From positions 1 to 64,000 of the forward strand of contig MU004197.1 in assembly GCA_010093605.1 (NCBI GenBank): a stretch of DNA of 64,000 bases, read 5' to 3'. The notes under the pieces are model-generated. The model was not told the origin of the DNA, made no database searches, and was given only the letters and a program-made list of their open reading frames with translations. This DNA comes from Lophium mytilinum. Taxonomy: Eukaryota. The position numbers were made by a program, and so were the translations under genes. This document shows positions 1 to 52,559 of this stretch, piece after piece; the first letter of the stretch is position 1; every line of letters starts with the position of its first letter.

Positions 1-95
1 CCTAACCCTAACCCTAACCCTAACCCTAACCCTAACCCTAACCCTAACCCTAACCCTAACCCTAACCCTAACCCTAACCCTAACCCTAACCCTAA
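1..95 (+). repeat. Telomeric (CCCTAA)n tract, chromosome left end
   Basis: About 16 perfect CCCTAA units from base 1, ending ...cctaa|gagat. Confidence 0.98.
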
Positions 96-2040
96 GAGAT
101 ACCTAGATTTAAGCTTTAGTAAACGTAGCTTGGAATTAATTCCTAAGGCCGGCTTGCAGTTAATTAACGCCTTAAGGGCTAAGTTATAGGGGCGTTGTTG
201 TCTAATCTAAGTACTCTAACTTCAGCCAAGCTATGCTATACTTCTTAAGGGAGTCTAATAATCTAAGGCCATACAAGGTTATAGAATTCCGGGGGTCTTT
301 TTAATTTATCCACTCTTTTTTCCATAGTACAGATAATTAAGTAGAATTACTATATCTAGCAGTAATTTGCGCAAGGCGGATATAAAGAGATGCTAAATAA
401 CTATTTACTAGCTATTTATTTAGTGTTGCTACATGCCTAGCATTACGCCCGGGGGTAACCTAAAGAGATAGTACCTAGAAAAGAAATACCTAGCAATTAA
501 GGTTTATAATAGTAAAGGTATTAACTTCTTCTATAGAAAGAACCTAGTAGGGGTAATAAGGCTTACTACTATTATCCAGCCTATCCTTTATAGTAAATTC
601 GGGACTTACGCTTTCTTTAAGTTGCTTAAGTATAGTAAAAAGTACTTGGAACTTGGTTTAAACCCTATAGGATAAGTGTCTATCTCTCTAGAGTATAGTA
701 TAGTGGCGTTAGAGAATAGTAGTAAAACTATTCTAAAGCTATTTTCTTTTTAATAATCTTCTAGAGCTACCTGCTGCTTTAAACTACTACTTAATTATTT
801 TAGTTAAGAACGCAAGAGCTTCTAGTTAAGTATTATAAAAGGGCGTAATATTCTTAACGGGTAACTTAAGCATAATCTTATTACTATTATAGATTTTATT
901 ATATGCTATACTACTAATACGGCTATAGTTACCTGCTTAGAGCTCTACTATTAGAGATAATGCGCCCTAGGTAAGATAGTAGGGGTATAATGTTGTATAA
1001 ATCTTTTCTTTTCCGCCGTTGTAGAAGTAAGTGGCCTAGTAGTTATTATAGCTAGTTTTGCGTAGAAGGGTAACCCCGGTATCTAGCTAATTAGTAGTTA
1101 GAATATCTTTATATCTATAGTTAACCTATATCCCCTTATCTAGCATATTAATTAGGTTTTTATTAAAAGTAGTAGTTAAAGTACATAGTAGCTAATCCCT
1201 GCTTTAAATTATACTTAAGAACTTATATACTATTTTTAGATTGTAACCTAAGACTACTAGGAATACTTCTTTAAATAAATCTTCGGGTATAGTATCTATT
1301 CCTATAAAGTTTTCTGCGTTATAAAGAACTTAGTCCTAGAATTCTTAGAGTTAATACTATAGAATTATATACTTAGTATTAACATAAGAGTCTCTAGATA
1401 ATATTATATATTTTTCTTTCTTAACGCTTGCTTTACCCTATATAATATTAAAACTATATAGTATATGCTGCCACTTATTAGGTGTTAGAGTATACTTTAC
1501 TGCAGGTAAGATAATATTATTAAGCTAAGCTGCTTATATTATATCTAGTAGATATAAAGTGTCGCCCTTCTACTTATTTAGTATTAGCATCTAGGGGAAA
1601 AATACGTAAGTTTTAAATTAATGCTTACACCCGTGCCCTATATAAAGCTGCTTTATTATATAGAGCTTATAGCCGCGTATTATAATATATTAGTTTTAAG
1701 TAATACTTTAGAGGAAGAATAGTTATAGAGATAGTAAGAAGTATAAATTATAGGCCGCTAAAGTAGAGATGCCGATAATAACGCTATTAATGTTATATAC
1801 TTACCGGATTTTAATCTCTTTATTCGCTATAAAGCTAGCTTTAGACCTTATAAAACTAAGCCTTAGAGTTTCTATATTACTAGTTTCTCCACTTAATATT
1901 AATTTCTATAGGACATTATTAAAGTTGTTAGGATTATCCTCTCTCTATAATAGCTCTAGTTAGCTCCTAAGATAGAAGGCTGCATTAGCTATAATAGGCT
2001 CTTATTAGGAGGGAAGGTTCTAAGCTAGAAGAAAGCTAGT
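96..2040 (-). pseudogene. RIP-inactivated ORF core (uncharacterised fungal protein; motifs VYDIDS, WLDNIILPA, GGIAYNKIYNSNK, SYGVRTEFRV, YGLGL..YGMAW..DW)
   Basis: Manual translation of one minus frame from 2040 to 96 with RIP reversal (TAA/TAG to CAA/CAG/CGA/TGG, A to G) gives protein-like sequence with no frameshift. An acidic and Pro-rich coding-like stretch lies upstream to about 3700. Confidence 0.7.
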
Positions 2041-4299
2041 AACTTAGCTAAGGGATCTACTCTAAGGAACTATTATATAGTTACTTACTATATTATAATA
2101 TTAGCTACTATATTATCTAAATAGAAAGAGTTAAGATATATAGTAAGTATACTAGACTTCTAACGCTAATTAGATTATACTTACTACATATAGAGTATTT
2201 ACTAATAGATTATTATACCTATATATATTAGCTTTATATAAACTATAGAGCTTATAATACTTACCTATTAGGGTCTATCTTATCTATAACTTTGTCTATA
2301 ATCTTGCTGTTGCCTTTACTATTTAAGGCTGTATTATCTACCCTACTGCCTTAATTCTCTAGTATAACTTTATTAAGTAAACCCGGTAATTTATCTATAG
2401 TATCTTACTGTCCTTATATATATACACCTTCTCTACCCTCTTTAACTCTATTATCTAATACCTTATCTACATCTGCACCTACTTCTACCTTATTCTTAAG
2501 TTAGGTAAATTCCTCTTCTACAACCTTAGTTACTAGCGTTGGGCGGAGAGATAATAAGGCAGCGTACTACTCCATCTAAACCTAACTATTATTATGCGCT
2601 AGTTGCATAAACTAACTTATATTAGCTAGTATTTCCTTCTTATCTATTTATTCTATAGCGTCTATTCTAGAGAGCACTTCTATGGCCTTATTTTATTGCG
2701 CTAAGAATAATTCTACTATAATCTCTTTATTAGTTATTTACGCAAGTATATAGAGCAGTAATATAGTAATAAGGGCTAGTATTTAGCGTTATATTATTAG
2801 TTCTAGTTATATAGAAGTAGAAGCCGCTATAGTTTATTAAGCGCGTAAACTTGCGTATAGTATTATAGCCGTCTATAGGGTATTCTAGAGGGTAAGAATA
2901 GTATATACGCCTGTATATACGTGTAGTATAGCTATAGGTTTAAGAAACGCTTTATAGAGATAGTGTATAGCGGGTAGAATCTAGCCCGGAGCTCTATTAT
3001 TATTATTTGCGGCTTGCTAAGGTGTCCCTACGCTAGAAGGTAGTAATAGAGAGGGCAACACCTCTCTAGCATTTAGAGGCGGTGGTAACGCAGGTATATA
3101 AGGAGATAATGCAGAAGATGCAGGTAATAGCAACTCTAATACTGCCTCTTCTACTTCTTTATCTACTTGGGCTACTTCTTTATTTACTTTACTTTCTTTA
3201 GCTGCTTCTTCTTCTTCTTTAACTACTACTCCCTTAATAGTCTATATAATAGTATACTTACTACTATTACTCTAATCTTACTCTGCAGCTTCCGTTAATT
3301 CTATATTACTTTAAATTTTAGGTATATATTAGGCTGCTCTTAACTTACTAGAGCGTATACTACTGCTAGTAGACTGCTAGGTATAAGAAAGTTATATTAG
3401 TTAAGTAGGTTAAAAGGTTAGAGGAGCGAGAGAATAAGTACTGCTATAAGTAGCCCGCCCTAGAGTAGAATATTAGGTAGGTTTAGTAGATAGAGAAGGA
3501 GCGGTAGAATAGATACTACTATAGATAGACCGCTATAGAGAAGTATATTACATAGGTTGCATAGGTTAGATAAATAGAGAAGAAATAGTAGAACGGGTAC
3601 TACTATAAGTAGACCGCTGCGGAGAAGTATATTACGTAGATTAAGTAGAGGTAGAAGGTAATAATTCTTCTATTAAGACGGGTTCTACTTAAGTTTATTA
3701 GAACCTAACCGTAAATACTAGGAGATTGCAAAAGATATACTAATTATAAGTTGTGCAATAGTTTCCTCTAAAGGCTCCTAAGGTGCAATTAGTTGTTAAA
3801 AGGGCGTGGGCGCAGGGCGGGTGGGATAAGGGGCCCTAATATTTATACTAGAAAGACCTCTAGGGTTTTTAAAGATAATTAGAAATAGATCTAGAATAGA
3901 AGTAGAAGTAGGCTTATTAGCCTCTCCTACTACAGCTATTTAGTCTACAGCCCTCTTCTTTTTATCTCTCTTGCGTTGGTTTAAATCCACTATTAAACGT
4001 AATTTAGCTGCTTTTCGCTCTTCTTTATTCTAGTACTTTCGGGGGCGTCCCATGCTAACTACTAGGTGTAGTAGTAAGGGGGATAATAGTTTAGAATATA
4101 GAGCTAAGGAGCGGAAAGCGGTTAGAGAGTATAATTAGTTAAAAATAAGGATTTATTAACATTCTTATTGTAGGGCTTACCCTGCCTAACCCGTTTTAAC
4201 ACCCCTTACGGATACGGCCACTTAGTTAAGGTCGCTAGGGAAGGGCCCTAGCAGGAAGGCTTCCTGCGGTAGCCCTATTAATTACTTTATCTATAAACG

Positions 4300-5250
4300 T
4301 TATATAAACTGTATCCTGCCCTTTACTTTATATATTTTATTTAATGCGGCTGAAATTTCTATTACATAAGAATACTATCTAGTAGTAACCCGTGCTAAGG
4401 CGAGGCTATTATAACGCAAAACCCTTTCTATTATATCTATTACCCTCTATAGGCACCTACTACTAGGACTTCGCCTTTTCTATAATGCTTTAATTTTAAT
4501 TACGTATACTGTATATAGTATTATAGCTCCGTTATAGTATCTTAATATCTAGGAGTTATTATATGCAGCAGTAGGAAGGCTGCTTAATTATAGGGCTATA
4601 CTCTGCGCTGCTAGCCGCCCTCTTTCCTTACCCTCTACACCCACCTAGAGCTATAACTATAGCCTATAAAATATTTCTAAATTGCTAGAATGCTATTACA
4701 TTATATAATAAGTAATTTTTCTTATAAATATCTTTAACCTTGTATTATAGTGGTTCTATGCAGCGCTAGTTAAGGTCTTTATTAAGTGCAAGGCTAGCAT
4801 TACGCTAAACTCTTTAAGTAACTTCTATTATTTAGAATCTTACCTCTATATATAACTGCCACTACTACTATAGCCTGCATATTAATTCTAAGTTAATAGA
4901 TCGCTATTACATTACGTATTATATATAATTCTTTGTATATTTCTTCTATACTACATTATAGTAGTTGCATGCAGTAGTAGTTGCACTAATTCTTAAGCGC
5001 GAGGCTATTCTTACGCTAAACCCTTTAAGTAATTTCCATTCTATGCCTGCGCACTCTGCGGCCTCTCTACACCCACCTTAAGCCACCACCACGGCTTGTA
5101 AATTAAATTAAAGTTAATAGAACGCTATTGTATTACATTCTAAGTATTATTCTTTACATGCATACTCTATTTTACGTCGTGGTAGTTAAATGCGGTGGTG
5201 CGAGGTTATACTGCACGCAATTCTTAAAGGTTAATTTTCTCTATATTAAA
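4300..5250. repeat. Degenerate ~210-bp tandem array (about 5 units) at the inner end of unit 1
   Basis: Anchor atgc(a/g)g at 4344, 4563, 4758, 4969, 5190. Anchor gc(g/a)agg(c/t)ta at 4400, 4788, 4999, 5200. Shared ctctacacccacct and ttacgctaaa..ctttaagtaa blocks. Confidence 0.6.
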
Positions 5251-5260
5251 CTCGCTTCTC

Positions 5261-5290
5261 CCTATCTAACCCTAACCCTCTAGCCCCTAT
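5261..5290 (+). repeat. Interstitial degenerate telomere repeat at the unit boundary
   Basis: cctatctaaccctaaccctctagccccta. Confidence 0.6.
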
Positions 5291-5294
5291 AATA

Positions 5295-8200
5295 TAAAAC
5301 TAAGCCTTAGAGTTTCTATATTACTAGTTTCTCTACTTAATATTAATTTCTATAGAATATTATTAAAGTTATTAGAATTATCCTCTCTCTATAATAGCTC
5401 TAGTTAGCTTATTAGATAGAAGGCTGCATTAGCTATAATAGGCTCTTATTAGGAGGGAAGGTTCTAAGCTAGAAGAAAGCTAGTAACTTAGCTAAGGGAT
5501 TTACTCTAAGGAACTATTATATAGTTACTTACTATATTATAATATTAGCTACTATATTATTTAAATAGAAAGAGTTAAGATATATAGTAAGTATACTAGA
5601 CTTTTAATACTAATTAGATTATACTTACTATATATAGAGTATTTACTAATAGATTATTATATCTATATATATTAGCTTTATATAAACTATAGGGCTTATA
5701 ATACTTATCTATTAGAGTCTATTTTATTTATAACTTTATCTATAATCTTACTATTACCTTTACTATTTAAGGCTATATTATCTACTCTACTACCTTAATT
5801 CTCTAGTATAACTTTATTAAGTAAACCTAGTAATTTATCTATAGTATTTTACTATCCTTATATATATATACCTTCTCTACCCTCTTTAACTCTATTATTT
5901 AATACCTTATCTATATCTATACCTACTTCTACCTTATTTTTAAGTTAGGTAAATTTCTCTTCTATAACCTTAGTTACTAGCATTAGGTAGAGAGATAATA
6001 AGGCAGCGTACTACTCTATCTAAACCTAACTATTATTATACGCTAGTTATATAAACTAACTTATATTAGCTAGTATTTTCTTCTTATCTATTTATTCCGC
6101 AGCATTTATTCTAGAAAGTACTTCTATAGCCTTATTTTATTACGCTAAGAATAATTCTACTATAATCTTTTTATTAGTTATTTATATAAGTATATAGAGT
6201 AGTAATATAGTAATAAGAGCTAGTATTTAGTATTATATTATTAGTTCTAGTTATATAGAAGTAGAAGCCGCTATAGTTTATTAAGCGCGTAAACTTATAT
6301 ATAGTATTATAGCTATTTATAGAGTATTCTAGAGAGTAAAAATAGTATATACGCCTATATATATATATAGTATAGCTATAGGTTTAAGAAACACTTTATA
6401 GAGATAGTATATAGTAGATAGAATCTAGCCTAGAGCTCTATTATTATTATTTACAGCTTACTAAGGTATTTCTACGCTAAAAGGTAGTAATAGAGAGGGT
6501 AATACCTCTCTAGTATCTAGAGGTAGTAGTAATATAGGTATATAAGAAGATAATATAGAAGATATAGATAATAGTAACTCTAATACTACCTCTTCTACTT
6601 CTTTATCTACTTAGGCTACTTCTTTATTTACTTTACTTTCTTTAGCCGCTTCTTCTTCTTCTTTAACTACTACTCCCTTAATAGTCTATATAATAGTATA
6701 CTTACTACTATTACTCTAATCTTACTTTATAGCTTCTATTAATTTTATATTACTTTAAATTTTAGGTATATATTAGGCCGCTTTTAACTTACTAAAGTAT
6801 ATACTACTACTAGTAGACTACTAGGTATAAGAAAGTTATATTAGTTAAGTAGATTAAAAGGTTAGAGAAGTAAGAGAATAAGTACTACTATAAGTAGCCC
6901 GCCCTAGAGTAGAATATTAGATAGGTTTAGTAGATAGAGAAGAAGTAGTAGAATAGATACTACTATAGGTAGACTACTATAGAGAAGTATATTACGTAGG
7001 TTATATAGATTAGATAGATAGAAAAGAAATAGTAGAATAGGTACTACTATAAGTAGACTACTATAGAGGAGTATATTATATAGATTAAATAGAGGTAGAA
7101 GGTAATAATTCTTCTATTAAGACAGGTTCTACTTAAGTTTATTAGAACCTAACTATAAATACTAGAAGATTATAAAAGATATACTAATTATAAGTTATAT
7201 AATAGTTTCCTCTAAAGGCTTTTAAGGTGTAATTAGTTATTAAAAGGGTATAGGCGTAGGGCGGGTAGAATAAGGGGCCCTAATATTTATACTAGAAAGA
7301 CCTCTAGAGTTTTTAAAGATAATTAGAAATAGATCTAGAATAAAAGTAGAAGTAGGCTTACTAGCCTCTTCTACTATAGCTATTTAGTCTATAGCCCTCT
7401 TTTTTTTATCTCTCTTATATTAGTTTAAATCCACTATTAAATATAATTTAGCTGCTTTTTACTCTTCTTTATTCTAGTACTTTTAGGGGCGTTCTATACT
7501 AACTACTAGGTATAGTAGTAAGGGGGATAATAGTTTAAAATATAGAGCTAAGGAGTAGAAAGTAGTTAGAAAGTATAATTAGTTAAAAATAAGAATTTAT
7601 TAATATTCTTATTATAGGGCTTACTCTACCTAACCTATTTTAATACCCCTTATAGATACAGCCACTTAGTTAAGATTACTAGAAAAGAGCCCTAGTAGAA
7701 AGGCTTTCTATAGTAGCCCTATTAATTACTTTATCTATAAATATTATATAAACTATATCCTGCCCTTTACTTTATATATTTTATTTAATGCGGCTAAAAT
7801 TTCTATTATATAAAAATACTATCTAGTAGTAACCTATACTAAGGTAAGGCTATTATAATATAAAACCCTTTCTATTATATCTATTACCCTCTATAGATAC
7901 CTACTACTAGGACTTCACCTTTTCTATAATACTTTAAATTTAATTATATATACTATATATAGTATTATAGCTCTATTATAGTATCTTAATATCTAGAAGT
8001 TATTATATATAGTAGTAGAAGGCTGCTTAATTATAGGGCTATACTCTATGCTACTAGCCGCTCTCTTCTTTTACTCTCTATATCTATCTAGAGCTATAAC
8101 TATAGCCTATAAAATATTTCTAAATTACTAGAATACTATTATATTATATAATAAGTAATTTTCCTTATAAATATCTTTAACCTTATATTATAGTAGTTCT

Positions 8201-8736
8201 ATATAGCGCTAGTTAAGGTCTTTATTAAGTATAAGGCTAGTATTACACTAAACTCTTTAAGTAACTTCTACTATTTAGAATCTTACCTCTATATATAACT
8301 ACTACTACTACTATAGCCTATATATTAATTCTAAGTTAATAGATTACTATTATATTATATATTATATATAATTCTTTATATATTTCTTCTATGCTATATT
8401 ATAGTAGTTATATATAGTAGTAGTTATACTAATTCTTAAGTGCAAGGCTATTCTTATACTAAACCCTTTAAGTAATTTCTATCCTATATCTATATACCCT
8501 ATAGCCTTTCTATATCTACCTTAAGCTACTACTATAGCTTATAAATTAAATTAAAGTTAATAGAACGCTATTATATTATATTCTAAGTATTATTCTTTAT
8601 ATATATACTCTATTTTATATTATAGTAGTTAAATGCAGTAGTATAAGATTATACTACACGCAATTCTTAAAGGTTAATTTTCTCTATATTAAACTTACTT
8701 CTCTCTATCTAACTCTAACCCTCTAGCCTCTATAAT
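5295..8736 (-). repeat. Subtelomeric repeat unit, copy 2 (truncated, more heavily RIP-mutated)
   Basis: Colinear with 1851-5293, and differences are almost all C>T or G>A in this copy (e.g. gccaccaccacggcttg vs gctactactatagctta). Ends ctatctaactctaaccctctagcctctataat. Confidence 0.92.
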
Positions 8737-11700
8737 TAAGTCTTAGCTAAATAGTATATTAAATATATATAATAATTTTAATTAATATAGCTAATATAGA
8801 TAGATAATACTTCTATATCTATCTACTCTAGCTAGTACTATACTATTCTTCTATCTATACCTATATTAGCCTCTACTAGTTATAAATACCTATATAATAA
8901 GATAAATAAGTAAGAGATTAGAGCTATAGAAAAAGTTAAAAAGAATATAAAAGTTATATAAGAGATAAGAGTATAGAACTATAAAAGATAGTAAGATTAA
9001 ATAGTATAAGAGTCTATATATCTAGCTAATCTACTTTATAATTAAACTATTCTATAGCCCGCCTTACTAAAGAAACTAGACTAGAACTATACTACTCTAA
9101 GGCAGAGCCTTATTATAACCTTATACTATTTTACTAGACTAGAATATAGATAGCTTAATATTTCTATATATAGGTAGTATAGAGTTATCTAAACTATAGC
9201 TATTATTAGAACTAAAAGTATAGCTATATAGCTAAATATTCTAACTAGGTATATAGATTCTATAGGGGGGGAATTTACTACTAGTAGACTGCCCTTCTAT
9301 TTTTCTATCTAGGGACCTCTCTACTATAGAGGAGTACCCTATAATATAGTATATAACTACTTATAGCGTAGTAACTAATAGAGGGCTAGAATTATAGAAA
9401 GAAGGCCTAAATAGTAGTAAAGAGGGTGTTTTAGACTAAGAGAGAAAAGAATATAATAGCTTAAAGTTGCATAATTTAGTTAGTAAAGGTAGAGGCGTTT
9501 ATTATTAATAATATAGAAGAGGGATATATACTATAGCTAAAGGAGATAGCTAGCAGGTTATTCGCGTTTAAGTAGATTATCTAACTAGGGATAAAGTTAG
9601 TAATAAGGGAATAGCTACGCGTTATAATATTAATACCTCTATTAGGGCCTTTAACTTAGCTAGCTATCTATCTAATAATATAGAATATAAAGTCTATAAT
9701 CTCTTAACTAACTACTATTCTAATAGCGTAGAAGATGCTATCTAGAAATAATAGTAGAAGGTAGTAGCGCGCATATAGTAATTAGTAGAAGTTAATATAA
9801 GTATATAAGTATAAGCTCTAGTTTAAGGTAATATAATAGAAGAGGTAATTATATAGATAGAAGAATTTAATTATATAGAATAATAGGGCTTTATTAAGGG
9901 GGGGATAGAGAAGAGGTATATAACTAGCTAAAGATACTAAGTTAATATATATAGACTATATCCGGCTAGCTCTATTATATTCTATTATAATAAATGCGCA
10001 ACTTACTCCCTTTTTATTCCCTTCTTTCTATACTACTTAATTATAATCTGCTTTACTTCTCTTTATAGTTATTATTCTCGCACTCTATCTTAAGAAATAG
10101 AATATTTTTTTACTATACGCCCTCTATCTATTATTTAGTAAGGCTTAATATTACCTACTTAAATATAGAAAAAGATAATATAGAACTATTTCTTTCTACT
10201 CTAAATAGAAACTTACTATATAACTTAAATATACTATACTATATACTCTATCTATAGTATATATTAATATATATATAGCTAATATATATAACTATAAATA
10301 GTAAAGAAGTAAAACTATGCTACCTTAAAACTAATTAATATAGTAATATATCTAGCTTTCTTAACTCTAATACCTACTAACTAATAATAAATATATAGAA
10401 CTTAATAAGTAAAAGAAAATATACTACTAGAATATTTTAAGACGGCAATACTATATTATCTTAGCCGTCTAGCCGCACCTTATCTCTTACTAGAAAGAGA
10501 AAATATAGTATAGAGAATAAGAATAGGTATATACCTATCTTCTAATCTAGTAATACTAACTTTTATATATAAATAGACTTTAAATATAAGATTAGCTTAT
10601 ATATATATTATAGCTACTCTACTAAATAGTATATACTAATAAATACCTATTAGGGTGCCGCCGTAGTCTAAAATAAGATAGCGGCTAGAATAGAAGCCTA
10701 TAGAGCTATTAACTAAATAACTAGGTCTAATATCTTTATATTAAGTAGTCTACTATTCTTCTCTTCTACTAGCCGCTTTTTAGGTATAGGTAGAGGTATA
10801 CCCGTTTATAACTATATTAGCTCCCTTAGTATAAAATAATATAGTAAAATAATTTAGATATAGAATAGTATAGATAGGTATACTAAAGTACTAACTATAA
10901 AGGTAAAATATATAGTAGTAGAAGAATAAATAAGATACTAGATACTTAGAAGTATAGTATTAGGTACTAATATAATTAGAGAATATAGTAATAACCTTAT
11001 AGCCTAGACTAAAAGTATTAAGCTAGATATATTTTAGTAAGTACTAATATAAATATAGATAAATATCTATAAAGACTAACTATTCTATACTTAAGCTAAT
11101 ATCCCTACTACTCTAGACCCTTTTTACGCGCGGAAGGTATATTACTTTCTTTCTACTTCTATAACTTTATATAATAGCTAATTATAATATATAACCTAGA
11201 TTTATAATACTTTTAGTTATTTCTATAACGCTATAATAAAGGTTACTTATAATATTATATAAGAATACTATAGTTTTAGTTCTATAACTCTAGATATTAC
11301 TAGTACCGCGTTAATACTAATAAAGAATTAGAACTATCTCTTTAGGGTAGATAAAGACTAAGTTAAGATTAGTTACTAATCTAGTATTAGATAGTATTCT
11401 AATAGATTATAGAGGCTACTAGTAATCTTTATAGCTAAGGCTATCTAGATAGTAGTTATAGACCTACTCTTTATAGAATAGTCTATAAACGCCTTAGAAA
11501 TATAAAGATACTTAAAAGAGTTTTTTAACCCCCTTTTAGGTAACACTATTATATATATATATACTTGCCTCTACTATACTATTAGTAAATATATCTTAGG
11601 CTAGAAGCGCATAAACCTAATTTATAGAGTTACTACTACTAGTATTAACTATCTTAAATTACTATATAGTCTACTATCTAACACGCAATATATATATTAT

Positions 11701-12339
11701 ATACTATTCTCTAGCCTAGATATCTAGCGCATGTGTTACTAGCTCTAATAGTCTACTAGAATATTAAAATTATTAAGATTAGTAATAGTTATATAATTCT
11801 TAAAAATATATATAGGTATTACTATCTATATAATGCGTAAAGTCTATAATATATATAAAGTTACTATAGACTATAAAGCTCTAGTAGAGGTAGTAAAAAG
11901 AAATAACTAGATATACTAGTATAACTTTAAATTTCCTACTATATATAATAATTATATATTTAGTATATAAGGCCCTATCTATATTATTATCTATCTATCT
12001 ATAACCTAGGCGGATTAGGCAGTTTTAAAAGGTTAGATAGAGGAGGTAGATAGCTATATTTATAAGAACTATAAAGTAGTTATTAACTATAATAATTACC
12101 TATAATACTAGATTATCTATAATTAAGAATTATCCGCGTAGCCTGCGCGTAAATTTTATATAAGAAGTAGATAAACTTTTATAAAGTAGTATAAAGCCTA
12201 TAGAGTAGTAAAATATATAGTTTTCTAGAAGGTTATATAAGTAACTAGTATTCTCTATATATTTTTTAATTTAGAAATTTCTAATACTATATATACTATA
12301 GAAAATAGAAAGTATATATAGTAAAATAGATATACTATA

Positions 12340-12432
12340 TAGCTTTACTATAAGTAGCCTTATATATAGCCTTATATAAGGCTTATATATATAGCCTTAT
12401 TTATAGCCTTATTTATAGCTTTATATATAGCT
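12340..12432 (+). repeat. ~12-bp tandem repeat (tagccttat[a/t]ta)
   Basis: Successive tagccttatata / tagccttattta units. Confidence 0.7.
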
Positions 12433-12650
12433 AAGTATAGGCTATTAGAAATAGTAAAAATATATAATAAAATAAAAAGGCTATATAGCCTTACTATAAA
12501 GCGCTAGAGTAGTATTTTAAGCTCTCTAGGCTAATTAAAAGACTAGATAAAATAGAGGATATATATATACTAAGAAGGGAGTATACTTATACTAATTAGA
12601 GGGGGTACTAGTACTAGTCTCTATAAAAAACCCTTAACTTTAATAAAGCT

Positions 12651-12757
12651 TTAGCCTTATTTAAAGTTTTAACCTTTAAAGAAGCCTTAACCTTATTTAA
12701 AGTTTTAACCTTTAAAGAAGTCTTAGCCTTATTTAAAGTTTTAACCTTTAAAGAAGC
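12651..12757 (+). repeat. 3 x 36-bp tandem repeat
   Basis: ttagccttatttaaagttttaacctttaaagaagcc at 12651, 12687 and 12723. Confidence 0.9.
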
Positions 12758-13179
12758 TATATATAGTAGTTTAAATATATTAAGTAAAAATAGTTAGCTT
12801 ATATTTTTATATAAATAGTTTAATATTACTTAAATAGGCTAGTATAATAGTAGTAGTAAATAGCTTTAGTAAATATAATATTTTAAGCTAGTCTCTATTA
12901 AGTAAATAGGCTAATACTAGTATAGCTAGTAGATAACTCTAAAAGTATTCTATTATAATAGTAATAATATTATTTTTACTTTAATAATAAGTACTTTAAA
13001 AATAATAAGCTAAATTAGTAGTAACTTTTAGGCTATATAATAAAAGTACTACTAATACTAACTACTTCTAGTAAGTAGCTTTATACTAGTACTATATAAG
13101 AGACTTTAAATATATAGAAACTATTTATAGTATATTATTATTAAGGCTAAACTCTTATTTTTAAAGAAGCTATATAATA

Positions 13180-15373
13180 TTACTACTATAAAGAGCTATT
13201 AAATAATAAGCTTATTAAAACTCTTAATAATTTAAAATATAGTAATAATATATATTATAAGTACTAGAAGTAGATAGTAATAGCTAAAGATATACTAGCA
13301 TCTTTCTATAATATTTATAGTATAAATCTTTAAAATACTATAGTTTATACTACTAAGATATTCTCTTACTTATAATTTATAAAAGTTATAATAGACTATT
13401 ATTTAGCTAATATAGTCTTTTCTGCCTAGATGCGGGAGTCCCCCTATAAGCTTTTAGCATGTAGTTAGAATATCGCTAAAACTAGGATAAACTCTACGAT
13501 AGGGTTTAGTGGAACTAACGACTCTAAATATACTCTACCGTCGACAATTAAGTAGGTAGAGCTGGACGCCCAGTTGCATACTAACGCAACTGTGCTGAAC
13601 GATCTGCTAAGTGCTAAGAACTCTTATCAAGACATCCCTCATGACCAGGATCAGAATATCACCGCCGATGTTCTGCTAACAATGGTGATCGGTCTGACCC
13701 CACCCGTACGAGTCATCCTCGACGTGGGAGCGCAAGTGCTAGACCTTCAGAATCATGAAATTGCACAGTTGTGGCTGGACAAGACTACGAATGACGATGC
13801 CAAGGCCGTCATTTTCGTAACGAAGCAAGATTTAATAGCAGTTCTGGATCGTGCTGGCACCTTGGAGGCGTTCGCGGTCTCCCCGTGGCAGCGCCAGATG
13901 GATCAGTGCTTCGTCTATCTCGACTAAGCTCATATACGGGGTACGGATTTGAGGCTTCCAATCGACTACCGAGCGGCGGTGACTCTTAGCCCTCGTTTGA
14001 CTAAAGATCGTTTTGTGCAAGCGTGTATGCGGATGAGAGATCTTAGTAAAGGCCAGTCAGTGGTTGCTTGTGCTCCTAAAGACATCCAGAAGCAAATCAG
14101 AATCTCCTGCAACAAGGCCGTGGACGAAAAGATCACCATGCTCGATGCTATTGAGTGGTGTATCCGAAATACTTGGACTCAGATTCAAACAGAAGTGCCA
14201 GTCTGGGCCCAGCAGGATGAGCGTTACGAGCATCAACAACAGCAACTCAATACGGCGCTTGCAAGTAATCCCGATGCCTTGAGCGTTTCGGTGGTAGAGA
14301 GCCTGAAAGAAATAGAGTCTCAAACCTTAGACATGCGATATGGAATCACTTCTCCGAGTTTGCACCAGGCGTGGAGATTCGATCTCCCGAAAGACAACGT
14401 ACAGGAGCCCGTTCAAGCTTCAGGCAATCCTTTAGCCTCAACATCGAAGAGAGTCAAGATGTCCGTAAATACGGAAGCAATTATTTCAAGGTGCCAAGAT
14501 TTCAACATCAGCCCTTACGAAGGCCCTGCCCTACACGAGGAGCAAGAACGCGAGTTGTGTCCGGAAAACGAACGAGAGCAACAGGTGGAGCGGCCACGTC
14601 CGATGCAGGCCCTCTCGCATGTCACCCACGCCGCGATCAAGACATTCGCTCGGACCGGTCAGTGGGGCAACCTCAAGAACGAAGCCGTACTTCCTGCCTT
14701 CTGCTCGCTGAAAACCACAAGCGCTGGTAAACTTCTCCGACCGAACGAGTGGCCTGAGGATCTCTTGGTATCCAAGTCCTTCGCACAATCCGTGAAAGCA
14801 CCAAAGGGAGAGACGACAGACGCATACCTAAAACCAGTAAATTGGATACTTAGCCGACAAACGGACGACGGCACACCACTCGGACGATGGGAACTTGTGA
14901 TAATCAGCCCTGCGGAAGCCAACGAGCTGCTCCCGACAATCATGATGCACAAAATGGTCGCACTTCACCTCTACTCGCCACGCACTCGGCAGTCAATGCG
15001 GTCACTCGATGACCTATAGTTTTGTGTCATCCCGCGACTTGAAACCAGAGGTGTACCCAGCTTGCTGATTACGCAGCTGAACCTGTTCGCCGGGCAGCTC
15101 TACCAGAACCACGATGAAGCGAACAAGACACTGTGCGAGTTCTTGGGTCTTTGGCATGTGCATCTGCTCGCACAGAGTGACGGTTTTATGAAGAAGGATG
15201 ACAGGCATTATGCTGGTCTTCACGACAGAAGCTGTCCCTTCACTGTCTCGCCTATGAACTTCGTGAAAGAGTGGCTAGGTATTCGGAGGAGAGGCCAGAG
15301 CTTCGAGAGGACGCACATGGGTGCACTGGTTGTAGTGGGAAGGGCGCTGACCGGGAAGGACTTTGAGTCTTAG
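13180..15373 (+). pseudogene. C-terminal part of a DUF3638/DUF3645-type large protein (often annotated ubiquitinyl hydrolase-like), 5'-truncated and RIP-damaged
   Basis: One frame with motifs GFSGTND, HTNATVL, VILDVGAQVL, VYLD*AHIRGTDL, LTKDRFVQACMRMR, LHEEQERE, ISPAEANELLP, QLNLFAGQLY, THMG. In-frame stops at 13925 (TAA) and 15017 (TAG), with many more 5' of 13570. Confidence 0.85.
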
Positions 15374-26538: not shown

Positions 26539-27639
26539 ATGGCGCGTGTCAAAAAACACCGCATGAGCGCCAAGAAGCGCGACGCGAAGAGGCGTCATTA
26601 CGCGACGAACAAGGCCCGAAAGAAGGCTCACCCGCCTCCTACTGACCCGACAGCCGGCCCTAACCCCAATGGCTTCACACAACCAACGACTAGGTACGAC
26701 AGATGCCGCCCAACACTCTTCGTAAACCCGATACTACCTAACCCCCACAGTACCCTCGCCAATGCCTTCCTACCGGGATTGCAGATGCCTGCCAACGACT
26801 ACCTGTCTGGACTACAGGTGCCCACCAACGACCCTTTTTCTGGAATACAGATGCCCACCAACGACTTCTCGTCTAGACTACAGATGCCCACCAACGACTT
26901 CTTGTCTGGACTACAGATGCCCACCAACGACTTCTTGTCTGGACTCCATATGCCCGCCAATGACTTTCTGTCTGGAATGCAACCGGCCGACAATGCCTTC
27001 CTGGATGGACTGCAGGCGCCCGCTTCCGCAGTCACCGTCCAATCTGCCCTAGACGCTCTGTACGACGCTCAGAACGCGATCATGGCCGCTCAATTTGCCC
27101 TGATTCATCCCCAGAGTGGAGTCCCAAACCCACCATATCCGATGGCGCCTCCACCCACGATCCCCTCCGAGCCCGAATTCCCCGCCGAGCCTGAAGTCTC
27201 TCGCGCCGATTCCGGGATGCACGCGGCATTCACCCCCCTTGCTGCTCCGTCTGTCGTCTCCGAATGGCTCTCCGATCTCCCCGGGGATACGTCTGTTACT
27301 GTCCAGGAGAACCAAGCTCAGTGCGGCAAGTGTCAGCTCGAGGGACGCAAATGGGAGACGCATGCGGAGCAAGCTTGCCCGTACCAGACCAAGGAGACGG
27401 TCAAGAAGAAGCGTAAGGTGAAGAATGAGCAACAGAGGAAGAAACAGTTGGAACGGTGGGAGAAGCACAAGGAGAAGAGAAGGGAGGAGCAGAAGATGAA
27501 AAGGGCTGGGAAGTTGATATTGGAGGACATGGAGGACCTGGGAATTCATTTTCCGCCTGACTTCCAGCTTTTCGATGAGGAGGAAATGAAGAAGATCTTG
27601 GAGGAGGAGTTTGGGCCCTCTGGAGTGCCGATGGACTGA
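26539..27639 (+). CDS. Hypothetical nuclear protein: basic N-terminus, 11-aa repeats, CxxC-H-C motif, charged C-terminus
   Basis: ATG at 26539 (MARVKKHR). Possible in-frame intron 26694-26750. CGKC..H....C motif followed by a K/E-rich helix. Confidence 0.7.
   Translation: MARVKKHRMSAKKRDAKRRHYATNKARKKAHPPPTDPTAGPNPNGFTQPTTRYDRCRPTLFVNPILPNPHSTLANAFLPGLQMPANDYLSGLQVPTNDPFSGIQMPTNDFSSRLQMPTNDFLSGLQMPTNDFLSGLHMPANDFLSGMQPADNAFLDGLQAPASAVTVQSALDALYDAQNAIMAAQFALIHPQSGVPNPPYPMAPPPTIPSEPEFPAEPEVSRADSGMHAAFTPLAAPSVVSEWLSDLPGDTSVTVQENQAQCGKCQLEGRKWETHAEQACPYQTKETVKKKRKVKNEQQRKKQLERWEKHKEKRREEQKMKRAGKLILEDMEDLGIHFPPDFQLFDEEEMKKILEEEFGPSGVPMD
26761..27021 (+). repeat. 8 x 33-bp coding tandem repeat (NDFLSGLQMPT)
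   Basis: aacgacttcttgtctggactacagatgcccacc variants in tandem. Confidence 0.92.
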
Positions 27640-47555: not shown

Positions 47556-48620
47556 TTAACCCGCCATCCACCTCAATATCCTTCTTCTCGTGACTTGCCC
47601 GTCCGGGTTCCATCGTACCCAAGCTACAAAAAGGGCTGAGCTGCCGACTACCATCCCCCAGACAGGCTTCATGATCACCGCCTGAACTAACATAGCCTTC
47701 TTGATCTCGATGATGAGCGACAAAAAGAAGAAGAACCGTTGCCATCGACTTCCGTTCTCCTGCCCTAGAAAGAGAAATATGCAGCCAATCGTGACGAGGA
47801 AGTCCATAACGAGGACAGCGTCCCAATTGAAGCCAATCTCAAGGAACGAGTACGATAAAGTCATGTAGGCGCCGTAGGATACGCAGAAGTACATGCCGGG
47901 GTTGCTCCATTCTTCCCACTCGTCCACGCGTCGTTGTTGCTCAGCCTGCCAATACTGAGGATTATGAGAGTGAGTGATAAGCTGCTGCAGGCGGGATTGA
48001 GCATGGCGACGACGCAGGGCCTGATCCTGTTGAGGCGACGAGTTCCAGGTCTGCGCATCCTGGGAATCCGCTTCATCCTGCCCCTGTCCGAGTCCCAGTT
48101 GCAGATGCTGCAGCTCCTCGGGCCCGTCCTGGTCCTCCAACGTCAATTCCTCGTCCCAGCCACTCTGCACCAACCCATCGAAATCATACTCCCACCCAAG
48201 CAACTCTAGCGCTTCTATGAGTAAACCTTCCCGCTCCACGGCTCCCATCTGCGGGCGATCCGCCTCCCAGTCCCGCCTCGCCGCCGCTAGATCCTCGCGC
48301 ACCTCGGCCAATATCTTGTGAGTAACCTCTCGAACCATCTCTTCATACTGATCCTGCTCAAGACGTGGCGGCCAGAAATCCGCGCTTGGGCCGTAGAGAG
48401 TGTTACGGCAAATCGGACAAGTCTTTTTGTTTACGAGCCACGCGATGAGACAGTTCTGTCCGAAGATATGGCGGCACTGGGGATGGCCGGATGTGAGGAA
48501 CGCGCGGTGGTCGGTCGTGTTGAATGGGTGGATGCAGATTGCGCAGCTGTCGGGGACTTCGGTGAAGTCGCGTGCGAGAAACTCGGCGAGAGTATTGGGA
48601 GGGCGGTAGATGTGAGGCAT
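47556..48620 (-). CDS. RING-finger E3 ligase-like protein with C-terminal TM helices
   Basis: CAIC..CRHIFGQNC..CPIC, acidic Q/E linker, about 4 hydrophobic segments. Confidence 0.85.
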   Translation of the reverse strand: MPHIYRPPNTLAEFLARDFTEVPDSCAICIHPFNTTDHRAFLTSGHPQCRHIFGQNCLIAWLVNKKTCPICRNTLYGPSADFWPPRLEQDQYEEMVREVTHKILAEVREDLAAARRDWEADRPQMGAVEREGLLIEALELLGWEYDFDGLVQSGWDEELTLEDQDGPEELQHLQLGLGQGQDEADSQDAQTWNSSPQQDQALRRRHAQSRLQQLITHSHNPQYWQAEQQRRVDEWEEWSNPGMYFCVSYGAYMTLSYSFLEIGFNWDAVLVMDFLVTIGCIFLFLGQENGSRWQRFFFFLSLIIEIKKAMLVQAVIMKPVWGMVVGSSALFVAWVRWNPDGQVTRRRILRWMAG

Positions 48621-49612
48621 GATCGCTAGACGTTTTGTGGGTGTTTTATGGGTGTTTTGTGGGCGCGTGGTTGAATTGATGGTGTGGAGAATGGCGGAAC
48701 TTGGACTGGTGTTTGCTGAGAGTGAGAACTTGATCGGATGGTGTTCCTGATTCGTAGAAGCACCGCGGGTGAATGCAGGCTCACGTGATGAATTGATCTC
48801 TCTCAAAAGTCATGAAAAGCGAACATTTGACTGATAATCCAGTGCTTCAGATCTACGGGATTGAATCCAAGAAGAACAGTGTTTCTTGAGGGCGAAGCTG
48901 AGCTCGAGCTGCGTTGTGGATGAGATGAGGAGTTTGAGGAGCCTCAAAAAGAATCGTGGACGGAACATTATTTCTTAGAGCCGGTTCTATTGACTTATAA
49001 CTACGGCTGCCGCTTAATGTGGGAATCCCAAATGCTATAAATTTGAGGTCATTGATCATCCAAAGCTGTCTTCTCATCCTGTCAGGTAGAGAGATTATAC
49101 TCAGAGGAAAAACAGGTTTGTACAAGTATGACACTAGGAACAACGTTCGAAAGATTTATGGGCGAGGCTCCGTCGTATAATCATGAATCTCAAGTGACAA
49201 TCAAGAATGCTGGTCTCAGACAATCACTACATAGAGGAGAGAAAGTCACAGTACACAAGCGGTCGTCGAAATGAAGGGCAGTGATCACTGTGACATTGTA
49301 CGTCTAGTCGAATTGGCTTCTGACTAACTACCATGGAGACTAGCTACGAGTTGTGGTCCAAACCGTGTAGGAGACATTCAAGGACGTCCCACAGTCGACC
49401 AGTATTGTGCTATGAGGTCACTGCGAGCCGCCACAAACCATACTAACGAAGTAGGCGCAGACCTTTGGTTTGGAGGAGTCGGCAGACTCTCAGAGACCTC
49501 ATGAGAGAATGCTAAATTTCCACAATCTAAAGACCCAAACAGCTCGTATGCCCTAGGAGCTCAAGAAAAAAGGTCCCGACATCCCCGCAGAGGGCTGGCG
49601 ACCATCAATAAG

Positions 49613-51685
49613 CTATTCAGGCTGAAAGTCAGCATGCCACCCTAGAAGAAGAAGAACGCTTCCCAAAGCCCCTTGCATCATGATGAAAATGAGCATGACA
49701 AGGATTGCTCCGAAGAAGACGTTGAGCGCAAATCCGAGCACTGGAAGCTCTGGTGCCACAACTGCAGCGTCGTCACTTGGCGCCACTGGTGCAGCATGGG
49801 CCAGAGGAAATTCGTGATTCTCAGCAGCAGCAGCACCATTCGCAGCGTTATACGCAGCGCGGATTAATTCTAGAGTGAGTCTAGAGAGACTTGTCTGGCT
49901 CCCGCGCACGAGACACCTCATACGAGAGAGTTGAAGGCGCGAAGGATGAAGGATGTATTCCGTGACGCGCGGATCGAGGGCGTTGAGGGCGTTGACCGCC
50001 GTCTCATCCGGCGCGAGATTCATCAGGGCAGGAAACCAGACGTCCATCATTGCAGGAGAGTTCAAGGCGGCTAAGAAACGCGCGTCGAGTTGGGGTTCAG
50101 GATGGCCCGGAGTTGCAGGCAGGACTTGGAAGTAATGCTCCAATGAAGGTACGGGGGCTACGGGAGCGACGAGAACCTCTGGAGCCACAGCGGCGCGAGG
50201 AACCTCCTGATCAACGGGGGCAATAGGAGCCCGGAGAGCAGCGGCGTTGTGGACGGCAAGAAGTTCAGCATGGTGATGCTCAGAGAGTGTCACGTCACCA
50301 AGGATCCTGGCGCGAAGAGCGTGAAGACGGGTTGGATCAATCATCATGCTAACGAAGTGCAAGCCTAGACCGCTCAGAGCCTGAACATCAGTGCGGTCGG
50401 CAAATCGATGAAGGAGGAAAGGAAAGAGAACCCGCGCAACGGGTTCGGAAGTAGGGGCATTATAGTCTATCGCATCGCCAGGGATGGCGTTTAAGAGGTG
50501 CTCTTGTATTGAAGCAGCGGGCACAGGCTGTGTAAGAGGCACGTTCATTGCCGCGGTAGGCTCGGCGGGGACCACGACGGGTGCAGGAGCCTCGAAAGTT
50601 AGGAGGGCAATGAGAGCGAGGCGCAACTCCTCAATGCTGGCAGCGGACCGGCCAGTCGTTTCCATTATGGTGGGACTGTAGAGACGGGCGAGGAAGCCAG
50701 CGCGATAGGCGTTCAAGAAGGTGGAACTGAAGAGGTACAAGTGAAACCAATCAGGGGCTTCGCAATTGTAAAGTTCTGCGACGAGAAGATCTACCCTAAC
50801 ACTGAGAATTTCAGGAACGAGTGCGGTGTTGATCTCGAAGTCCATGAGGGCCATTGGTGGCATTGGAGTCCAGGTAGCAGGGTCTTGAAGTTCTGTGCGG
50901 AGTGCGTTGCAAAATATCTCGATATTGGCTGCCGTATGGCCGGTGGCTTGAGCAACAGCAGGATCCCGAAGGCGAGTCAGAAGGGCGGCACGTTGAGCGT
51001 TGAGTACAATAGGACTGAAGAGAACGACAAGGGCTGATCTAAGGTCGTGGTCCACTTTTAGTCCATCAACTTGTCTACCAATAACGTGATCAAAGATCGG
51101 TGGGCGAAGATAACCTGCGATTTGGGCGTCCAGGGAGAACTCGTTGGTAACAGGGCCGATGATGGGCACAGTCCACTGATCCGCGGAGGCGACAGAGCCT
51201 GCCGCCAGGTTGCGATTTATGAGAGCATTGATTTCTGCGGTGGCATTGGGCTCGGCTCGATGATTGTCGAGTCGTATGAACTCGTCTGCTGCAGCAGGTC
51301 CGGCGGGGATCTCGACGGGTGCAGGAACTGCGGGCACTACAGCAGGGCTATGAAGGGCGTCGGCCTGAGATTGAAGGGCGTCGACCTGGGATTGAAGTCT
51401 ACGGAGTCGGAGAGCTGGGGAGATGGGTTCCGGGGAGACGGGTTTCGGCTGATAGAATTTGTTCGCGCAGACTGGACATTCCTTCTTCCTCGCAAAGTCG
51501 CTGGTAAGCCAAACCATCAGGCATTTGCGCCCGAATACGTGGTGACAGTGTGGATTGCTAGTTGCTAGGACCGCGGTATGGCACTCCGTGTCGAATTCCT
51601 CGAAGCAGATTTGGCATTCGACCGGTAATTCTAAGAGGTCGTTTCGCAAGAACTCTTCCAACGTGGCCGACATGCGATCTTCCAT
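49613..51685 (-). CDS. RING-finger protein with internal repeats and C-terminal TM anchor
   Basis: CQIC..CHHVFGRKC..CPVC, P/A-rich spacers, hydrophobic tail VLGFALNVFFGAILVMLIFIMM. Confidence 0.88.
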   Translation of the reverse strand: MEDRMSATLEEFLRNDLLELPVECQICFEEFDTECHTAVLATSNPHCHHVFGRKCLMVWLTSDFARKKECPVCANKFYQPKPVSPEPISPALRLRRLQSQVDALQSQADALHSPAVVPAVPAPVEIPAGPAAADEFIRLDNHRAEPNATAEINALINRNLAAGSVASADQWTVPIIGPVTNEFSLDAQIAGYLRPPIFDHVIGRQVDGLKVDHDLRSALVVLFSPIVLNAQRAALLTRLRDPAVAQATGHTAANIEIFCNALRTELQDPATWTPMPPMALMDFEINTALVPEILSVRVDLLVAELYNCEAPDWFHLYLFSSTFLNAYRAGFLARLYSPTIMETTGRSAASIEELRLALIALLTFEAPAPVVVPAEPTAAMNVPLTQPVPAASIQEHLLNAIPGDAIDYNAPTSEPVARVLFPFLLHRFADRTDVQALSGLGLHFVSMMIDPTRLHALRARILGDVTLSEHHHAELLAVHNAAALRAPIAPVDQEVPRAAVAPEVLVAPVAPVPSLEHYFQVLPATPGHPEPQLDARFLAALNSPAMMDVWFPALMNLAPDETAVNALNALDPRVTEYILHPSRLQLSRMRCLVRGSQTSLSRLTLELIRAAYNAANGAAAAENHEFPLAHAAPVAPSDDAAVVAPELPVLGFALNVFFGAILVMLIFIMMQGALGSVLLLLGWHADFQPE

Positions 51686-52559
51686 GGCGATAGAAATTCG
51701 TTGCGGTGTGCTTGCTTGTTTGATGCGAGTAGGTTGGTGGTAAGCTCTAGTGTTGGTCGAGGGGTGGTCGTGGAGGATGTTGGCGAGTTGCGTTAACAGT
51801 GTGCGCTCGCGGAACTTTATAGACGCTCACGTGACGTCGTTGTAGTGACTGCGAAACAAAGGCCTCAGACACATGTTCTGATGCTGATTTCGTTGCGGGA
51901 CACTGGCGATACGTGAATTCTCGCCTCTTATCTGGTAGCCTAGGTGAATCTAGCTATTGTTCAAAAAGTAGTAGTTTGTTCGTTTTGGAGCCGCAGGAGC
52001 GCGTGAAAGCCGTGACAAAGAGACTGGGTCATCGTCGATAGGGCTCAAGATTCATTCGCTGATCTGATCACTATACCCTGCCAATGTTCATTCATGTAGT
52101 TCCAAGAATCGGGAGAAGACACTATCACTACGAGTATTTGCTCAAAGAACTGCAACTAGTTCCGAACATGACAATAATTCCTTACGTTTGTTAAAGGCAC
52201 CGAAGGGGTCAGAATACTTCCAGAATCTGGGGTCAATTATAGGTATCGTGACGTCGAGTATTTCACATATTTGCAAGAAATCTACTTCGCGCTTACTGGA
52301 CGGTATTTATTTCTGAGTTGGTTCACAGAAAGAGCTAGTCTCAGCAATGCTAGAGGACAAATGAGTAATGGCACACGATTCCGTAAAATATGTCCAACCA
52401 AGGCTACCAATCCAAAGCGCGAGACCTTCACCATTTGCGGTCTTCGTGGGGCGTCTGTCGTTGGATTCCTGCCCTGGTGGAGCTCGTACCTAGATTGAAA
52501 CATCATATCCCTCGCGTTCTGTTTCCACAGCCCATGCCGATCCCATCGTGTCGAATAAT

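Follow-up and report, generated by a model that had tools for sequence, protein, structure and literature searches.

A probable telomere-truncated relic of an undescribed, helicase-linked gene family at a chromosome end of Lophium mytilinum

We describe a gene relic at the start of a 64,000-nucleotide stretch of Lophium mytilinum DNA (assembly GCA_010093605.1, contig MU004197.1, positions 1 to 64,000 of the forward strand), hereafter the window. Positions 96-1956 very probably represent a member of a repeated, helicase-linked and undescribed gene family, here termed A1, that was killed by repeat-induced point mutation (RIP) and truncated by a telomere. An initial annotation, made from the sequence alone, had proposed that a protein lies hidden by RIP in one minus-strand frame of this region, and that it might be a transposase or replicase recalling Rep_trans-type rolling-circle initiators. 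The hidden protein is borne out, with 129 homologs at E<=1e-3 and a family profile match at an independent E-value (i-E) of 3.4e-88; the proposed Rep_trans link is not. The following features define the relic.

Positions 1-95, minus strand: terminal telomere repeats, (TTAGGG)n on this strand, with 14 overlapping perfect 12-mers at 6-95.
Positions 96-1956, minus strand: RIP-inactivated core of an A1 gene, covering family profile positions 29 to 652-661 of 993 (profile match, collinear alignment).
Positions 1957-2040, minus strand: 28 codons upstream in the same frame, included in the initial annotation and not aligning to the family profile.

The frame is accepted as a gene because of its homology and not because of its stop count. 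Read on the minus strand from position 2040, 51 of its 648 codons are stops, TAA or TAG in every case and never TGA; the other five frames hold 57-91, and the minimum for Markov-1 shuffles is 60.2 +/- 4.4 (lowest 47), so that stop counts by themselves set the relic frame apart neither from the other frames nor from the shuffles. Translated with X at stops (P0001), it was used as a query against 1.84 billion representative proteins, and 66 of its 129 matches reached E<=1e-10 and 14 reached E<=1e-30. We discarded two of the 129 as composition artefacts, namely the repeat proteins P0003 and P0066 (DDE_1 repeats, leucine-rich repeats), which match residues 577-636 only. From an alignment of 47 full-length homologs, itself designated A1, we derived a family profile of 993 positions, which matches the window once, in the single frame 1956->91 and over positions 29-661. 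The alignment is collinear over ~620 codons and contains no frameshift. It is hardly credible that the frame arose by chance from RIP-biased composition and was never a gene: its unremarkable stop count is what such a product would give, but the database matches, the profile match and the directional, RIP-type mismatches described below refute it.

Every motif listed in the initial annotation falls, in order, on a conserved family motif, and its reversal of RIP was essentially right. The unreversed relic and the family correspond as follows.

VYNINS in the relic aligns to WDVDS in the family.
YVFFP aligns to CHVFFP.
LNNIILPA aligns to WIDxIVLPAL.
WQHILYSF aligns to QHHPxSF.
The W.D.G.ED block aligns to a conserved family motif.
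SSIAYNKIYNSNK aligns to GGxAYxKAYNxxK.
SYRVxTKFQV aligns to FGVRQEYRI.
PYYPYxVLS aligns to HRPYWxLPT.
YGLRL..YSIAW aligns to GLxL..GMAW.

The damage to the relic is RIP-type. Of the 72 profile columns with the highest conservation, 30 are mismatched in the window, and 24 of these 30 differences (80%) can be derived by C>T or G>A changes only, against 11.7 +/- 3.6% of mismatches in shuffled controls; over all columns, 133 of 426 mismatches fit this direction and 24 of 426 the opposite one. Nine TAG stops of the relic stand opposite a consensus Trp. Of 34 invariant or near-invariant family positions 15 are retained, and the changes at the others include D>N (three times), W>TAG, H>Y and E>K (twice each), C>Y, P>L and R>TAA. 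Among the 12 residues that are invariant throughout the family, only F128, K235, Y353 and G577 (P0016 numbering) persist; the other eight now read N, N, N, K, Y, stop, K and C, every change being C>T or G>A, a pattern that fits a dead copy and not another family. In a tree of 28 members it occupies a long basal branch, which is uninformative.

The plus strand of the window starts as (CCCTAA)n at 1-95, and the window therefore begins at a chromosome end. The telomere repeats share strand and polarity with the relic, which reads into them. Its match to the profile ends at position 652-661 of 993, a few codons from the start of the telomere repeats; full-length members run ~330 profile positions further, to ~990 core residues, and the C-terminal third of the gene (the domain at ~577-990 is not complete) is missing. 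Since the alignment stops at (TTAGGG)n, we interpret the border as a terminal deletion inside the gene, healed by telomere addition, a break followed by the addition of a telomere being the simplest reading. Contigs from two runs extend 83 and 51 bases past position 96 on the telomere side, which is compatible with the junction.

The relic lies in an AT-rich block with a local duplication.

Positions 96-13500, no strand assigned: RIP-type AT-rich subtelomeric block containing the relic (dinucleotide indices, GC content).
Positions 1849-5293, no strand assigned: telomere-proximal copy of a 3,445-bp tandem duplication, with 90% identity to 5293-8736.
Positions 5293-8736, no strand assigned: second copy of the tandem duplication, more RIP-mutated (pairwise comparison).

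The usual thresholds for RIP are a TpA/ApT index of ~0.89 and a (CpA+TpG)/(ApC+GpT) index of ~1.03. GC content is 0.23-0.36 in the block against ~0.5 beyond it, TpA/ApT is 1.46-2.12 against 0.62-1.08 at 14-16 kb, and (CpA+TpG)/(ApC+GpT) is 0.03-0.64 against 1.12-1.22 at 14-16 kb; over window positions 1-2000 the two indices are 1.66-2.12 and 0.35-0.37. A six-frame scan of window positions 1-14000 found no Pfam domain in the block. Short tandem repeats with unit sizes of 75-84 bp, 211-221 bp and 36 bp occur inside it at 3346-3649, 6790-7093, 4633-5200, 8076-8643 and 12638-12757. The telomere-proximal copy of the duplication covers the sequence upstream of the relic and the first 64 codons of the initially annotated frame, and because the duplication takes in these codons a second copy of the 5' end of the gene lies at 5484->5293. 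Between the two copies there are 339 transitions, 3 transversions and 1 gap, and RIP has been very one-sided: the telomere-proximal copy keeps C or G where the other has T or A at 321 sites, with the reverse at 18.

Sequencing runs X1 and X2, which belong to one sample, possibly of the source organism of the window, contain 496 and 559 contig pieces, respectively, that align to window positions 96-2400 (2,305 bases) at 90-100% likeness and differ from it mainly by transitions. These many variant pieces, together with the tandem duplication that includes the 5' end of the gene, lead us to regard the A1 gene as part of repeated DNA. In two air metagenomes the differences from the window are mostly A>G and T>C (38 of 40 and 35 of 35), and the relatives present there are therefore less mutated than the window copy. 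A scan of Joint Genome Institute (JGI) metagenomes with nine closer A1 members yielded 34 loci (L001-L034), ten of them from a single metagenome with mutual nucleotide identities of 70-90%. The A1 frame is free of stops in six loci (L001-L003, which are one element, L011, the partial L013 and L018); it holds 1-6 stops in ten, 17 in one, 30 in two and 42-76 in the remaining 15, where TpA/ApT is 1.54-1.86. This distribution indicates that a hidden, RIP-killed copy is the usual state of A1. The initial annotation had raised the possibility that homologs sit in repeats, and repeated, mostly RIP-killed DNA is indeed what we find.

The A1 family comprises Pezizomycotina proteins with a core of ~1000 residues. 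Its named members come from Coniosporium, Aulographum and Lepidopterella (Dothideomycetes), Pseudogymnoascus (Leotiomycetes), Xylographa, Flavoplaca, Variospora and Xanthomendoza (Lecanoromycetes) and Fusarium oxysporum, the taxonomy of four of these having been looked up. All are named "hypothetical protein", in agreement with the earlier suggestion of an unannotated Pezizomycotina family. Twelve residues are invariant in 47 of 47 members (D60, D62, F128, K235, D273, E277, C298, Y353, R432, E434, R490 and G577), and the D-x-D, Y..K and R-x-E-x-R motifs singled out at the outset are invariant or nearly so across the family. Conserved motifs include R-x-W-D-V-D-S, H-x-L-K, W-x-D-x-G-x-E-D, T-L-L-R-K-x-x-C, K-A-Y-N-x-x-K, G-x-R-Q-E-Y-R, H-x-P-Y-W and R-W...E. 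The charged invariants all lie within the first 500 residues, and the C-terminal part conserves mainly Gly, Trp and Phe. Many members carry a low-complexity N-terminal extension, joined to the core in L001 across a canonical intron (GTAAGT...TACTAAC...CAG). A search for longer, fused forms returned one only, P0158 (Fusarium oxysporum, 1998 residues), whose gene model holds two successive A1 cores (profile 170-768, then 29-866); this would imply two tandem A1 copies in that genome. Intact copies are under purifying selection, the ratio of nonsynonymous to synonymous substitution rates being 0.14, 0.30 and 0.21 in the three of nine pairs of intact or nearly intact copies that have unsaturated synonymous sites.

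Similarity searches gave A1 no assignment. Pfam matched nothing consistently in the relic, in sets of 14 and 21 homologs or in all 47 aligned members, and the same was true of PHROGs, NCBIfam and PADLOC across the 47. Searched with the family profile, the PDB returned a chance match only (a spike glycoprotein, E 0.44), and the ESM Atlas gave no usable match. Relatives were not found in IMG/VR viral contigs or in prokaryote genomes, and no RVT (reverse transcriptase, RT) model matches any member. Nor did we find an account of the family in the literature, locus tags included, in an incomplete library.

Several enzyme classes were considered, and none found support in the sequences. For a DDE or RNase H-like transposase, no true member has a Pfam DDE match (DDE_1 occurs only in the spurious P0003), and in the candidate triad D60/D149/E184, with spacing 87/35, D149 is conserved in just 39 of 47 members and lies in a helix-like stretch as judged from the sequence. 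For a primase of the archaeo-eukaryotic type (AEP), the candidate motif-II His, H125, is conserved in 30 of 47 members, another 13 having Tyr or Phe there. A tyrosine recombinase or topoisomerase would need R, K, H and Y in a different order and spacing. The Rep_trans link likewise has no support at the level of sequence: neither PF02486 nor any other Pfam model has a match at E<=5 in any of the 47 members, no solved structure is reached by the family profile apart from the chance match above, no sign was seen of terminal repeats, target duplications or Helitron-like ends, and the genomic setting points not to a rolling-circle transposon but to long repeat units with a helicase of the RecQ (telomere-linked helicase-like) or SNF2 type. 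Rep_trans proteins are ~300 residues long. A1 resembles them loosely, in its conserved acidic residues, Tyr and Arg/Glu, but no sequence or profile match links the two, the A1 core has roughly three times the length of a Rep_trans protein, no features of a nick site or origin turned up, and the helicases beside A1 are RecQ or SNF2 and not of the Pif1 or PcrA type.

In the metagenome loci L001-L003 and L017 an open reading frame (ORF) of 1580 residues lies 694 bp downstream of A1 on the same strand. Pfam recognizes OrsD (the C2H2-type finger region), DEAD and Helicase_C in it, and its best PDB matches are RECQ5, RECQ1, RecQ, BLM and WRN (E 1.5e-37). Fungal telomere-linked helicases (TLH) are described, in the passages cited here, as RecQ-like helicases of ~1,570-1,630 residues with N-terminal C2H2 fingers (10.1101/2022.03.07.483234, 10.1101/2024.02.27.582403, PMC1635262), and the predicted 1580-residue protein has the architecture and size reported for them. 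An alignment of A1 with the neighbouring helicase by hhalign revealed no relation between the two. RecQ-type ORFs or relics accompany A1 in 12 of the 34 loci, always on the A1 strand and in ~7 independent lineages once near-identical records are collapsed, in three arrangements.

L001-L003, L017 and L022/L023, A1 strand: helicase directly downstream of A1.
L020 and L024, A1 strand: helicase 5.7-8.5 kb downstream of A1.
L018, L019, L021 and L027, A1 strand: helicase upstream of A1.

In three further loci of the 34 (L011 and L031/L032) A1 is accompanied by an SNF2 helicase ORF whose best PDB match is RAD5. When plus frames were scanned in four loci, one of them (L033) gave a Helicase_C relic ~2 kb downstream of A1. 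L018 (3-299) and L019 (8280-8567) contain only the N-terminal zinc-finger part of the helicase (residues ~2-130), 1.3-1.9 kb upstream of A1, which is either a separate small gene or a remnant.

This linkage bears on the idea, which we consider improbable, that A1 is an ordinary host gene family, such as a metabolic or signalling enzyme, amplified and RIP-mutated by an unstable subtelomeric location and only coincidentally near helicases. Purifying selection on the intact copies, the wide spread over several Pezizomycotina classes and the absence of detected similarity to any DNA enzyme would suit a host gene, as would the members that lie on long contigs (32-95 kb, up to 6.5 Mb). Many other members, in contrast, lie on contigs of 3.6-6 kb, typical of collapsed repeats, and most genomic copies are dead repeats; moreover, same-strand linkage to RecQ-type or SNF2 helicases recurs in ~9 independent lineages, and the unit to which A1 belongs has a constant, telomere-like boundary.

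A1 units are ~7 to 15.6 kb long and variable in both length and content. Their 5' boundary is sharp and shared: TT(G/A)TAAGGGTTAGAGGGTTAGGAATTTTTT stands at the border in L001/L003, L002/L013, L014, L021 and L034, next to upstream flanks that are unrelated. Each unit opens with a telomere-like motif, GGGTTA-GA-GGGTTAGG, in the sense orientation of A1. The double telomere-like motif was counted 12 times across 11 loci, never on the opposite strand, against an expectation of 0.1. Just upstream of the 5' motif, ~9-10 copies of the 12-mer TGTTAGGGATAA, with TTAGGG inside, run to the contig end in L001 (1-122) and L003 (1-118); we note this as a telomere-repeat variant array. Between the helicase gene and the next unit lie tandem repeats several kb long that are nearly free of C on the sense strand, such as GTAATAGTAAAGGTAGTAGGG; such repeats are present at L002 12372-15800, L023 ~8900-12780, L002 1-270 and L013 1-110. 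The 75-84 bp repeats of the window are weakly (~65%) like those of L002, L023 and L025, which may be an effect of composition.

Units are arranged head to tail, and the start of a following unit is visible in three loci. In L023 the motif reappears after the helicase and ~4 kb of C-free repeats, giving a unit of ~15.6 kb composed of leader, A1, helicase and repeats. In L034 it follows an A1 module after ~290 bp. In L027, within 6401-7240, a RecQ/TLH relic is cut at residue 1496 of 1580 (position 7212), and the motif of the next unit starts at 7219, apparently the trace of a cut within the helicase gene and of the later capture of another unit. The L027 junction and the window would thus record the same kind of event, the former as an internal fossil and the latter at a live chromosome end. 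Polarity agrees between the two settings: with the A1 sense strand as reference, the window has its telomere, as TTAGGG, downstream of the gene, and the loci have the motif, as GGGTTA, upstream of the unit that follows.

At the other end of the module, a conserved sequence lies ~100-190 bp past the A1 stop (L001 6040-6115, L014 12880-12960, L034 12810-12890). It contains a short palindrome (GCATGT..ACATGC in L001), a C-run and a T-run, beyond which the loci diverge, and may be a terminator or a module boundary.

We regard it as unlikely that A1 is, instead, the transposase or replicase of a new autonomous mobile element, with the 5' motif as its end or target preference and the helicases as passengers or accessories; a Rep_trans-like initiator would take up a small part of that probability. 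Such an element would suit the multi-copy, mostly RIP-killed state of A1 (42-76 stops in 15 of 34 loci), the sharp and constant 5' end next to unrelated flanks, and the common 3' sequence, with its palindrome and T-run ~190 bp past the stop codon, beyond which the loci diverge. The few ends inspected, however, showed neither terminal inverted repeats nor target-site duplications, units are not uniform in length or content, and the head-to-tail junctions each fall at a telomere-like motif, so that end-to-end joining fits them better than transposition does. For some A1 modules no helicase could be detected over 9-10 kb, and the ten loci at 70-90% nucleotide identity come from one metagenome, both of which speak for an autonomous element. 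The invariant acidic, basic and Tyr residues would likewise suit a DNA-cleaving enzyme, but no member has a Rep_trans, HUH, DDE, tyrosine-recombinase or other Pfam match, the family profile found no solved structure, and a core of more than 900 residues contrasts with the ~300 of Rep_trans proteins.

The same residues enter into the reading of A1 function that we favour over these two, some probability being left for other readings. The invariant D-x-D, K, D..E, Y, R-x-E-x-R and R residues, taken together with the gene neighbours, make A1 a possible, still doubtful, candidate for a metal-dependent enzyme that acts on nucleic acid and works beside the helicase in maintaining or copying the unit.

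Saccharomyces cerevisiae Y' elements are helicase-encoding subtelomeric repeats that form head-to-tail arrays with short telomere-repeat tracts between them and are thought to spread by recombination. To our knowledge, they encode only a helicase and no A1-like gene, and budding yeast lacks RIP. A parallel between TLH regions and Y' elements has been drawn before (PMC1635262, in the part cited). In the passages we cite, TLH chromosome ends of Magnaporthe oryzae carry tandem repeats, with telomere-like motifs in them, that flank a TLH gene, and terminal truncation is frequent, one case lying inside the TLH ORF (PMC1635262). TLH-containing regions of F. oxysporum are described in the cited portion of another study as 6-13 kb long, single or arrayed, with telomere repeats on both sides and TLH ORFs of ~4.7 kb (10.1101/2024.02.27.582403). 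The A1 units resemble TLH region I of M. oryzae and the TLH-containing regions of F. oxysporum in helicase architecture, tandem repeats, telomere-like borders and arrays, and share truncation with them, in the cases of the window and L027. They differ in adding a second large conserved gene upstream on the same strand, the cited passages describing a helicase ORF only, and in that A1 has, in some lineages, an SNF2 helicase as its partner or lacks a detectable helicase altogether; the only part of such a unit present in the window is the A1 relic, unlike in the helicase-bearing TLH regions.

The retroelements MoTeR and FoTeR offer a second comparison. The consulted part of one source places them at chromosome ends, with telomere-like repeats at their 5' end, one ORF of ~3.5 kb and many truncated, RIP-mutated copies that co-localise with TLH genes, and describes their integration as target-primed reverse transcription (PMC12857005). 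Unlike these reverse transcriptase elements, A1 matches no RT model. By our own reasoning, the MoTeR/FoTeR sense strand would be expected on the C-rich telomere strand, whereas the A1 sense strand bears the G-rich telomere-like motif and the A1 gene reads toward the chromosome end.

We infer, by analogy with what has been proposed for yeast Y' elements and for the TLH-containing regions of Fusarium, that A1-bearing units would be TLH-type subtelomeric units spread between chromosome ends by recombination or by copying primed at telomere repeats; for the metagenome units, a subtelomeric position is suggested by the helicase type and the telomere-like motif. The history of the copy in the window is largely borne out by the data above. 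The A1 gene formed part of repeated DNA at this chromosome end, and RIP filled the copy with C>T and G>A changes. As the junction shows, the chromosome broke at about codon 650-660 of ~990, telomerase capping the break, with loss of the last third of the gene and of everything distal to it; RIP and breakage could have come in either order. The outcome is an inert relic, and the window would represent one TLH-type end after terminal truncation. The helicase of this unit, of which none was detected, would sit distal to the break.

Several observations weigh against interpreting the relic as a truncated member of a helicase-linked, telomere-bordered repeat family. Nineteen of the 34 loci lack a helicase; 12 of these have less than 5 kb of flank on both sides, but the other seven (L012, L014, L025, L026, L030, L033 and L034) have 5-10 kb on at least one side, although L033, counted here as helicase-less at first, later gave its Helicase_C relic. 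None of the 34 loci contains three or more perfect telomere repeats, the window alone carrying a true terminal telomere, and the constant 5' motif could be an element end and not a fossil telomere. The RIP block of the window shows no helicase relic, 5' motif or interstitial telomere repeat beyond chance, and copy number and telomere linkage in the source organism come from contig pieces only. For A1 itself, no library model or solved structure was matched that would show an enzymatic activity.

The kind of unit is already known; what is new is a second large conserved gene in a TLH-type repeat unit, in which SNF2 sometimes takes the place of RecQ. TLH genes are common at fungal chromosome ends, and A1 adds to them a conserved, enzymatic-looking partner in several classes of filamentous ascomycetes, one that annotation usually misses, most copies having been destroyed by RIP. 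The family supplies a new candidate protein for folding, expression and assay, its constant telomere-like 5' end a marker for mapping unit movement between chromosome ends, and the window a clear case of a chromosome end truncated within a gene and healed by a telomere. Should A1 act on DNA ends, it would bear on subtelomere copying and on telomerase-independent end maintenance; if it does not, a sizeable unannotated family can still be recovered by RIP-aware searches. It is a long shot that A1 is a nuclease, recombinase or polymerase with a fold new to the libraries, acting as the catalytic protein of self-propagating chromosome-end elements together with a superfamily 2 (SF2) helicase (RecQ/TLH or SNF2). 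If so, A1 and the helicase would join the unit, or a copy of it, to telomere repeats, leaving the constant telomere-like 5' end and the head-to-tail arrays as footprints, and the TLH subtelomeres of fungi would, at least in some lineages, be two-gene mobile elements and not passive duplications.

The remainder of the window carries ordinary fungal genes, among them those for an XPA-type repair protein, an ankyrin protein, a CorA transporter and several RING proteins. In this gene-rich part a near-telomeric 12-mer, TTGGGGTTAGGG, occurs alone at 26658-26669, probably by chance. Three adjacent minus-strand ORFs at 47556-53672 (354, 690 and 370 residues), each with an N-terminal RING finger, form a small local cluster.

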